A stretch of 64,000 bases of DNA from Dehalococcoidales bacterium (lineage in GTDB: Bacteria > Chloroflexota > Dehalococcoidia > Dehalococcoidales > RBG-16-60-22). Shown piece after piece: positions 9,567 through 10,148 of this stretch. How positions within the stretch are numbered: the stretch's first letter is position 1; each line of letters starts with the position of its first letter. The notes below the pieces were generated by a model. That model saw only the letters and a program-made list of their open reading frames with translations. It was not told where the DNA came from and made no database searches. Made by a program: the position numbers and the translations under genes. Location: the NCBI GenBank assembly GCA_034414775.1, contig DAOULX010000042.1:3590-67589 (forward strand), in the 5' to 3' direction.

Positions 9567-10148
9567 CTAATGAAGGTCCACGTACTGGGTAACCCGGCCG
9601 GGTATTTCTCTTTCTAAGGGGAGCACCGGGCCGTTGGGTGGCTTAACCTCCAGGGCAAACCTGTCATACGGGCCGATTGAGATATTGCCTGATGTCGGCA
9701 TGACAACGGTGATTTCGAAGAGCTCGTTGGGATCGAGAAGATTATCATCATTGACCGTGCTCAACTTTGCCAATGTCCAGTTGACCGAGGGAAGAAAGTT
9801 GCCCTGGTCATGGTAGGAAATAATGACAGGGCTTACATTCTCCGATGACGGAGCGAAATCTACCGGACTACCGGCCGAAGGAATCGCCACACCAAAGATG
9901 ATTTCCGTTACAACGCTGCTCTCCATCTTGGCGATGATGTTGCCCTTGATTTCTATCGTGGCCATGGTTGAATCGAGTCCGGCGTTGACGGCCTCTTTGG
10001 CCTTCTGTGAGGAGAACAGGCCTGCGGAGAGGACGACATAAGCGAACACCGAAGCCACAATGACGAACGCAATAAGTATTATTGCCGTTTCCAGGCCGGT
10101 GACACCCGCCTGGTTTTCGCGTATTTCCTTTACTCGTTTCCTAAACAT
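9567..10148 (-). CDS. Archaellin (archaeal flagellin) N-terminal domain protein with class III signal peptide
   Basis: A basic leader [15 protein letters not shown] is followed by [43 protein letters not shown]. This matches the archaellin N-terminal domain pattern, including the region after the hydrophobic helix. An RBS GGTGGAGG lies upstream. Confidence 0.75.
   Translation of the reverse strand: [193 protein letters not shown]

Follow-up and report, generated by a model that had tools for sequence, protein, structure and literature searches.

Does an archaellin-like gene that lies alone among bacterial housekeeping genes encode a genuine filament subunit, and if so, what assembles it? The question is raised by one locus in a window of 64,000 nucleotides (the whole stretch of DNA that was analysed) from a Dehalococcoidales bacterium, where the original prediction had placed an orphan gene of the archaeal flagellin family. 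A gene of the archaeal motility filament in a bacterium was a surprise until 2023-2025; a cryo-EM structure and swimming assays are now at hand. The archaellum of Chloroflexota, Dehalococcoidia included, was published in 2025 with a filament structure and swimming data (PMC12488501), and the general phenomenon is therefore already known. Three details of the present locus are not mentioned in the literature examined, namely a conserved and unlinked fourth paralog, its HTH partner, and a 5′ leader of its own. We consider it probable that this gene, here designated arlB type A, is transcribed separately and supplies a bacterial archaellum with a functional fourth subunit.

The open reading frame is intact, begins with ATG, and specifies a protein of 193 amino acids whose sequence, as originally quoted, includes IEIKGNII. 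The gene and the regions of its product are located as follows.

9567..10148, minus strand: arlB type A, the complete coding sequence of the pre-archaellin, stop codon included (open reading frame, PF01917, 9i5h_C).
10104..10148, minus strand: class III signal peptide, residues 1-15, with predicted cleavage after G15, so that E20 is residue +5 of the mature protein.
9978..10103, minus strand: hydrophobic N-terminal alpha-helix of the mature protein, approximately residues 16-57 (AF2 helix and conservation).
9570..9977, minus strand: C-terminal beta-sandwich globular domain, approximately residues 58-193 (AF2, Foldseek, and phmmer alignment to residue 191).

Residues 15-175 match positions 1-157 of the 162 in the Pfam model Arch_flagellin (PF01917) with a score of 86.5 bits (E 3.3e-24), the gathering cut-off being 29.5 bits, and the archaellin/pilin N-terminal domain of NCBIfam (TIGR02537) is just above its cut-off of 20 bits with 20.7. 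The archaellin N-terminal pattern with its class III leader, as originally proposed, is thereby borne out. A phmmer search of the PDB aligned residues 16-191 with residues 1-181 of 9i5h_C (E 1.5e-31, 40% identity); the similarity therefore extends through the globular domain, in keeping with the earlier claim that it continues past the hydrophobic helix, unlike that of bacterial pilins or Flp. The structure is that of Litorilinea aerophila ArlB, the closest characterised protein, to which the window protein is homologous over the whole mature length; the two share their size class, the cleavage context G↓xTxLE, the combination of helix and beta-sandwich, and a host among the Chloroflexota. Weaker matches were obtained with A. 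pernix, M. hungatei, S. islandicus, and S. acidocaldarius archaella.

Cleavage of the leader after G15 appears likely from the alignment: G15 and L19-F28 are invariant in the 41 Chloroflexota archaellins aligned, and the mature L. aerophila subunit (9i5h) begins at the position aligned with the residue after G15 (PMC12488501). D121 and E134, here taken as mature numbering, are conserved metal-binding acidic residues of L. aerophila ArlB (PMC12488501). E142 of the window protein aligns with E134 and is invariant; the equivalent of D121 is ambiguous, the loop being four residues shorter with D134/D135 close by.

The AF2 model, built from the 41-sequence alignment and of moderate confidence (mean pLDDT 73.5), consists of a helix at residues 2-57 followed by eight strands, with pLDDT values of 92-94 at residues 21-40. 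Conservation is highest in the N-terminal helix, from which the core of an archaellum filament is built, with 93% identity within type A orthologs and 83% to paralog B1, the first archaellin of the arl clusters described below. Comparison with known folds points the same way as the original prediction: in a Foldseek search of the PDB the first 15 places are all taken by subunits of archaellum filaments, the FlaF/FlaG structures rank under every one of them, and pilins are absent among the 21 matches at E<=0.001.

Bacterial type IV pilins, pseudopilins, and Flp pilins belong to a common superfamily with this protein and share its class III signal peptide, hydrophobic helix, and Glu at +5. The difference lies in the globular domain, which in the window protein is an archaellin beta-sandwich, and in the profile search, where PF01917 was expected to prevail over pilin and Flp models and did so: no pilin or Flp family of Pfam appears at E<=1, the sole other match at that level being a sub-threshold Peptidase_M56. 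The short basic leader, the Gly at -1, the hydrophobic helix behind it, and a homology that runs beyond the N-terminus into the beta-sandwich are all those of an archaellin; neither the models nor the globular domain of bacterial pilins, pseudopilins, or Flp fit. Identity as a stator protein, ArlF or ArlG, was rejected, since the window protein possesses a leader and scores 86.5 bits on PF01917; ArlG and ArlF of a sibling cluster (L054) reach just 26-28 bits, and ArlF matches FlaF_Ig-like. Sequence and model comparisons confirm the window gene as a real archaellin, the match lying well past chance. The protein also carries three positionally conserved N-x-S/T sequons, where Litorilinea-like archaellins average about one, though their number is not above that in shuffled sequences (P = 0.15).

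The surroundings of the gene are bacterial. Its neighbours are those originally named, pyrD (PF01180), a 70-aa gene with a weak HTH_3 match, and an HhH-GPD DNA glycosylase. Other genes identified in the window with Pfam are the proximal genes of an F-type ATP synthase, a citramalate/homocitrate-synthase-like gene, MiaB/RimO-like radical SAM, yajC, nadC, a GH65 phosphorylase fusion, RadC, endonuclease V, RecO, RecR, enolase, FtsZ, FtsA, MraW, TrmD, L19, PriA, and peptide deformylase. Most window ORFs were assigned in this way, while prfB, serS, lysS, dnaX, and GAPDH were recognized by reading the translation and the distal ATP-synthase genes from operon context. The genome is bacterial, as had been stated, because it contains FtsZ/FtsA/MraW, the F-type ATP synthase, PriA, and RecO/RecR, and because the close homologs all come from Dehalococcoidales or Chloroflexota MAGs.

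The source is itself a metagenome-assembled genome, which leaves room for an archaeal contaminant or an assembly or binning artefact, a reading to which we assign a negligible probability. The gene sits inside a 64-kb stretch of bacterial housekeeping genes, and its GC content of 0.52 compares with 0.56 for the window, GC3 being somewhat low at 0.62 against 0.68-0.73 in six other window genes. Among 39 unlinked type A loci found in other assemblies (see below), pyrD lies downstream in 35, a homolog of the HTH gene stands between archaellin and pyrD in 35, and the HhH-GPD gene is upstream in 25. The same arlB-HTH-pyrD order thus recurs in 35 loci, 25 of which have HhH-GPD as well, and this conserved synteny refutes an artefact in practice.

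The original prediction had also noted that no assembly genes are nearby. Among window ORFs of at least 150 aa there is no prepilin peptidase (A24), T2SSE ATPase, T2SSF platform, KaiC-like ArlH, or ArlF/G. An identical archaellin protein is encoded on contig CAYMSP010000006.1 of GCA_964393175.1, which gave an additional 9.9 kb to the left of the window and brought the sequence inspected to about 74 kb. These 9.9 kb hold the pst operon, ThiF, Usp, desulfoferrodoxin, and Lon, with no arl genes or type IV filament machinery; arl genes are absent for about 54 kb to one side of the archaellin and about 19 kb to the other, and chemotaxis genes were not seen in the approximately 74 kb. The gene therefore does not stand at the head of a machinery locus, the position described as typical for Chloroflexota and that of arlB in clusters of the L. 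aerophila type; it lies between the HhH-GPD gene and pyrD. This is a difference in position, shared by the 35 type A loci with the arlB-HTH-pyrD order, and no functional exclusion.

Taken at face value, the lack of machinery in some 74 kb would fit a genome truly devoid of an archaellum, in which the archaellin is a leftover or is assembled by the apparatus of either Tad or type IVa pili into a non-rotating adhesive fibre. With its Glu at +5, the processing site looks like those of bacterial type IV pilins, and Tad pili occur in about a third of Chloroflexota genomes (PMC12488501). Six ArlI homologs were looked up, and all belong to assemblies other than this one (CAYVPT01, CAZBIE01, CAYWAU01, JAUWYU01, CDLKDU01, and JBFOMZ01). 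We nevertheless regard this as unlikely in view of what the sibling genomes contain.

In a large protein collection, 2869 homologs of the archaellin were found, the best 120 of which are 68-83% identical and 190-217 aa long, the named ones being from Dehalococcoidales/Chloroflexota MAGs; relatives of the window protein have already been annotated automatically as archaellin-domain proteins. An archaellin alignment was then used to scan one genome per species, which yielded 578 relatives with a top match of 76% identity to the window protein, the window's own species being absent from the best matches. The best 80 of these, all from Dehalococcoidales, Dehalococcoidia, or Chloroflexota MAGs, were examined, and their loci were screened against the Arl proteins of one Litorilinea sp. 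cluster. Among these best 80 of 578, the loci fall into two clean groups. Where the archaellin is at least about 56% identical to that of the window (L004-L039 and the partial L080), no arlG, arlF, arlH, arlI, or arlJ lies within 10 kb on either side; where it is about 47-59% identical (L040-L083 without L077, L080, and L081), the locus is a complete cluster wherever the contig is long enough. The cluster reads arlB three times, arlG, arlF, a second and longer arlF-like gene, arlJ, a gene for a 315-349-aa protein resembling the Litorilinea gene at the arlCDE position, arlH, and arlI, with a divergent LuxR-type response regulator upstream. In the Litorilinea sp. MAG, a single full-length archaellin is followed by arlG and arlF.

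With shared WGS prefixes taken as evidence of the same genome, type A occurs together with a complete cluster in at least eight assemblies (MGNQ01, which is RBG_16_56_11, and CAZCOB01, CAZLEY01, CAZQQL01, CAYPDM01, PLLL01, CAYXOZ01, and DAOUEH01) and with a cluster broken by the contig end in CAYWAU01, CAYQZZ01, CAYWZO01, CAYPYL01, CAZPQB01, and JBDRFW01. Both CAYWAU01 and JAUWYU01, the latter with type A locus L018, combine type A with ArlH/ArlI, and Chloroflexi bacterium RBG_16_58_8 has archaellin A2137_02435 and ArlI A2137_03795; beyond the eight assemblies with a complete cluster, type A is accompanied by ArlI in at least three. About 20 type A assemblies show no cluster among the best 80 of 578 loci, which is uninformative since only these loci are considered and the MAGs are fragmented. 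Conversely, about 20 assemblies have a cluster and no type A among the same best 80 of 578 loci, and type A is therefore not required for an archaellum. A scan of viral contigs with the Litorilinea ArlI, a single-protein search that depends on exact 8-mers, returned no match.

The sibling assemblies in which both loci were matched thus all pair type A with arl genes, a finding at odds with an archaellin devoid of machinery. Because sibling genomes hold a complete arl cluster on another contig, the word orphan stands in the sense of unlinked from the arl genes and falls in the sense of machinery-less in the lineage. Judged by these sequences, the window gene is an unlinked member of the archaellin family of archaellated Dehalococcoidales, one that has a system, and we surmise that the window's own genome carries an arl cluster as well.

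From the fetched loci, 158 archaellins were placed in a neighbour-joining tree with Litorilinea-type sequences as the root; this tree puts the window protein in a clade of 39 members derived exclusively from unlinked loci, which is the type A clade. Its monophyly is recovered in 98 of 100 bootstraps of a 51-taxon subsample. Type A and B1 form a clade with 100/100 support, outside which the second and third cluster archaellins fall. Monophyly and nesting with B1 indicate that type A arose by duplication of a cluster archaellin inside the Dehalococcoidia and not through a separate import. There are accordingly four archaellin paralogs in this Dehalococcoidales lineage, type A and the three of the cluster. 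B1 (for example L054:10001-10600 and L064:9944-10573) is the sister and closest paralog and evolves at the same rate; it lies directly upstream of two archaellins and arlG/F/J/H/I, beside the LuxR-type response regulator, whereas type A does not. Within one genome the two are 53-64% identical, the first 45 mature residues being 83% and the globular part 50% identical.

The archaellin is full-length and intact in the fetched genome loci, except at contig ends or in a disrupted ORF (L031, L077, and L080). When 13 genomes were compared, pairs of type A sequences were on average 76.6% identical and pairs of B1 sequences 75.4%; dN/dS is approximately 0.12 for type A and 0.085 for B1. By these measures type A is under purifying selection and is maintained as strongly as its sister. 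Such selection, equal to that on a paralog of the cluster, speaks further against a leftover, and since the locus is vertically inherited, loss of the cluster from the present species would be a special case.

The arrangement of the locus bears on how this probable fourth subunit is expressed. The following elements flank the gene.

9307..9519, plus strand: gene for a 70-aa HTH protein, in convergent orientation to the archaellin; its match to HTH_3 (PF01381, E 3e-4) is weak and falls short of the cut-off.
9497..9543, minus strand: terminator-like hairpin with a 16-bp stem and a T tract, 24 nt past the archaellin stop.
10153..10160, minus strand: Shine-Dalgarno sequence GGTGGAGG, 4 nt ahead of the ATG, from reading of the sequence.
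10234..10296, minus strand: conserved promoter-like region ending in an extended -10-like TGTTATTCT at 10242..10234.

Almost every one of the 39 upstream regions compared for type A has a GGAGG-type Shine-Dalgarno (SD) sequence. Their consensus, AAACTGTAACGAAATATTTATAT-N11-GATATTTATGTTTTAGTTACC-N7-CTGTTATTCT, was drawn from 29 loci, and the extended -10-like motif TGnTAT[TC][CT]T occurs in 32 of the 39. The conserved block probably acts as a promoter, which would give a leader of about 80 nt in the window, with transcription predicted to start near 10227. With a promoter-like region, a strong SD, and a terminator of its own, type A is most likely transcribed on its own. The terminator-like hairpin coincides in part with the 3′ end of the HTH gene. 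This small gene is convergent with the archaellin at a distance of 54-160 bp in 36 of the 36 type A loci that have both, and was not found in any arl-cluster locus compared; its candidacy as a regulator of the archaellin is speculative.

For the type A leaders (about 50-125 nt), folding predictions give greater stability than for shuffled sequences (mean z = -2.3) and a pairing of the SD with a CUCUU-type segment farther upstream. On average the SD is paired with a probability of 0.65 in type A, compared with 0.51 when the upstream sequence is shuffled (P = 0.002) and 0.36 in B1 leaders (P = 2e-4); since the type A sequences are mutually related, these folding and pairing values are suggestive only. 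The upstream motifs of B1 differ, with GGTAGATTG at about -42, and its predicted SD occlusion is lower. A known cis-regulatory RNA, such as a c-di-GMP riboswitch, was rejected, as no Rfam family matches the type A upstream region. An operator common to type A and the first cluster archaellin was likewise sought and found unconvincing, the shared element being just a generic AT-rich 9-mer (ATATTTATG / CATAAATAT).

By homology with the bacterial archaellum of L. aerophila and with archaeal archaella, the pre-protein would insert in the membrane via its hydrophobic N-terminal helix, whereupon a prepilin-type (class III) signal peptidase would cut behind G15 and so free it of its basic leader of 15 residues. 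Mature subunits would be joined to the filament at its base by the ArlI ATPase and the ArlJ platform, the N-terminal helices making up the core and the beta-sandwich domains being directed outward; ArlI would turn the filament against the ArlF/ArlG stator, and ArlH would have a regulatory part. In the published account, ArlI and ArlJ polymerise the archaellins, rotation against ArlF/ArlG is driven by ArlI, ArlH is regulatory, and Chloroflexota outside SAR202 have as signal peptidase a PilD of bacterial type whose gene lies elsewhere in the genome (PMC12488501). L. aerophila assembles archaella that drive swimming, the filament structure has been published, and arl clusters are present in Dehalococcoidia (PMC12488501). 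Type A is presumably processed and assembled into a filament in the same manner. As a gene that is probably transcribed on its own, it could supply the main subunit of the filament, a partner that co-polymerises with others, or an alternative for particular conditions.

Type A might instead use the arl machinery without being a body subunit, as a minor base, hook-like, or cap component or in a separate non-motility filament. The clusters already have three archaellins, the globular domain of type A is just about 50% identical to that of B1, and its own promoter-like region and predicted SD-occluding leader set it apart from B1. Moreover, about 20 assemblies with a cluster are without type A, again among the best 80 of 578 loci. 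Yet its length, cleavage site, and helix are typical of body archaellins, and its full-length best matches are filament body subunits. An unlinked archaellin can, furthermore, be the major subunit. In Haloarcula marismortui FlaA2 is encoded on plasmid pNG100 and FlaB on the chromosome beside the accessory genes; the plasmid-encoded FlaA2 dominates wild-type filaments, and the cluster-linked FlaB is an alternative for higher salt (PMC6528647). A role outside the filament body is thus improbable, slightly more so than the absence of any machinery.

A body subunit is the reading we prefer, and the likeness to H. marismortui is that an archaellin away from the motor genes is still assembled and that the paralogs are regulated differently (PMC6528647). 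The two cases differ in that H. marismortui is an archaeon, the gene lies on a plasmid, and salt-dependent stability is known by experiment. Several archaellin paralogs with the same fold are found in Methanocaldococcus villosus as well (ArlB1/ArlB2, 7ofq; Foldseek E 5e-7, about 15% identity). In that structure ArlB1 and ArlB2 reportedly co-assemble in one filament.

We tentatively suggest, with more doubt than confidence, that type A is the principal or a condition-specific filament subunit of a four-archaellin bacterial archaellum and is regulated apart from the motor cluster. The suggestion is made because of the conserved promoter-like region, the SD-occluding leader, and the small HTH gene that is always adjacent. 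If true, type A would be a bacterial counterpart of the haloarchaeal archaellin ecoparalogs.

Another archaeal-type component had been proposed on the same contig, CetZ-like genes at 38.8-44.6 kb, and this identification holds. The two genes (38794-39969 and 43416-44591) encode proteins of 391 aa each with 66% mutual identity, which match Tubulin (PF00091) and CetZ_C (PF21011). In the PDB they match 4b46 and 4b45 best and 3zid next; 4b46 and 4b45 are CetZ1 and CetZ2 of Haloferax, though their PDB records use the name FtsZ. The two genes enclose one for an Ala/Glu-rich protein of 818 aa and an ORF of 162 aa, both of which lack a Pfam match. The CetZ module is directly upstream of type A in five genome loci. 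It is beside type A in one of 80 metagenomic CetZ loci, the rest having the GAPDH-CetZ-recR context of the window. An ancestral CetZ-archaellin operon was rejected on this count of 1/80, and the adjacency is for the same reason a single rearrangement of derived character, which speaks only weakly for a functional link. That Dehalococcoidia have CetZ-like proteins was noted in 2023 (PMC9871819), and Haloferax CetZ1 influences assembly of the motility machinery (PMC13644373). A functional link between CetZ and the archaellum is possible in these bacteria. In its wider version, separate regulation of type A would be joined by a larger archaeal-type toolkit for motility and cell shape in this lineage, comprising the archaellum and the paired CetZ; taken as a whole, we hold this to be similarly doubtful.

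In this widespread, uncultured Dehalococcoidales lineage, then, the archaellin repertoire has grown to four paralogs, and one of these has moved to a housekeeping locus and has been kept there across many species. Detectors based on gene clusters would call such unlinked archaellins orphans or miss them in counts. The CetZ-like tubulins on the same contig provide a testable lead on whether archaeal functions in cell shape and in motility are connected in bacteria, and type A is both a marker and an experimental handle on how bacteria regulate and compose an imported archaeal filament.

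The type A archaellin, which belongs to a clade of archaellin paralogs unlinked to the archaellum machinery, is flanked by the following features in the window.

9307-9519, plus strand: 70-aa gene with a weak match to HTH_3, convergent with the type A archaellin
10149-10296, minus strand: conserved promoter-like block and leader of the archaellin gene
8069-8157, minus strand: tRNA gene with the DUF1801 gene and pyrD on either side, at a distance of about 1.4 kb from the archaellin gene

The promoter-like block includes an extended -10-like element (TGTTATTCT), and the leader is about 80 nt long. 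The Shine-Dalgarno sequence is predicted to pair with the final leader hairpin, and type A leaders show significantly more of this predicted occlusion than either shuffled sequences or the leaders of B1, the sister paralog encoded in the arl clusters. The upstream region and leader matched no family in Rfam. In all 36 loci possessing both genes, the convergent HTH gene adjoins the type A archaellin; the arl-cluster loci lack it. Its location beside the archaellin may be no more than old synteny with pyrD; alternatively, the 70-aa protein may act as a regulator of the archaellin.

The archaellin (9567-10148) contains three N-x-S/T sequons, at N104, N123 and N155, which are conserved in position in 93, 116 and 116, respectively, of 119 type A homologs, while the Litorilinea-type bacterial archaellins have a mean of about one. 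The number of sequons is not in excess of that in shuffles (P = 0.15).

The archaellum (arl) machinery clusters of Dehalococcoidales are illustrated by three loci from related genomes.

L054, 8870-20143: arl cluster
L064, 8852-19627: arl cluster
L084, 556-15014: arl cluster

These clusters contain three archaellins in tandem and, besides arlF, a second arlF-like gene that is long (about 361-365 aa); a LuxR-type response regulator is encoded divergently. L084 also has a set of histidine kinase and response regulator genes, located downstream of arlI. Conserved motifs are found 5′ of B1, the first archaellin, at about -84 (CAAGATTGGGGATGG) and -42 (GGTAGATTG).

Elsewhere in the window are two further tRNA genes, the CetZ module and a gene for a 1348-aa fusion protein. 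This protein joins a HAD phosphatase and a trehalose-phosphatase domain to a GH65 phosphorylase that is complete, with its N-terminal, catalytic and C-terminal domains all present.

3787-3859, minus strand: tRNA gene
22896-26942, plus strand: 1348-aa fusion
27027-27113, plus strand: tRNA gene
38794-39969, minus strand: CetZ-like tubulin (PF00091 and PF21011)
40183-42639, plus strand: 818-aa Ala/Glu-rich protein, between the two CetZ-like genes
42811-43299, plus strand: 162-aa ORF, between the two CetZ-like genes
43416-44591, minus strand: CetZ-like tubulin (PF00091 and PF21011)

The two tubulins share 66% identity and have 4b46/4b45 as their top PDB matches; neither intervening product matched Pfam. 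This four-gene module is conserved, within the context GAPDH-CetZ2-orf162-coil-CetZ1-...-recR, across many metagenomic contigs; relatives further away carry either a single CetZ or a tandem pair.

The module lies approximately 28.6 kb from the archaellin in the window. In one subclade, represented by five genome loci (L014, L019, L020, L025, L080) and one metagenome locus (L103), the entire module is immediately upstream of the type A gene, its order and orientation matching those seen in the window, with about 330-460 bp between the CetZ1 stop and the archaellin start. Because only one of 80 metagenomic CetZ loci has this adjacency, the placement of the CetZ module next to the type A archaellin is a single derived rearrangement.
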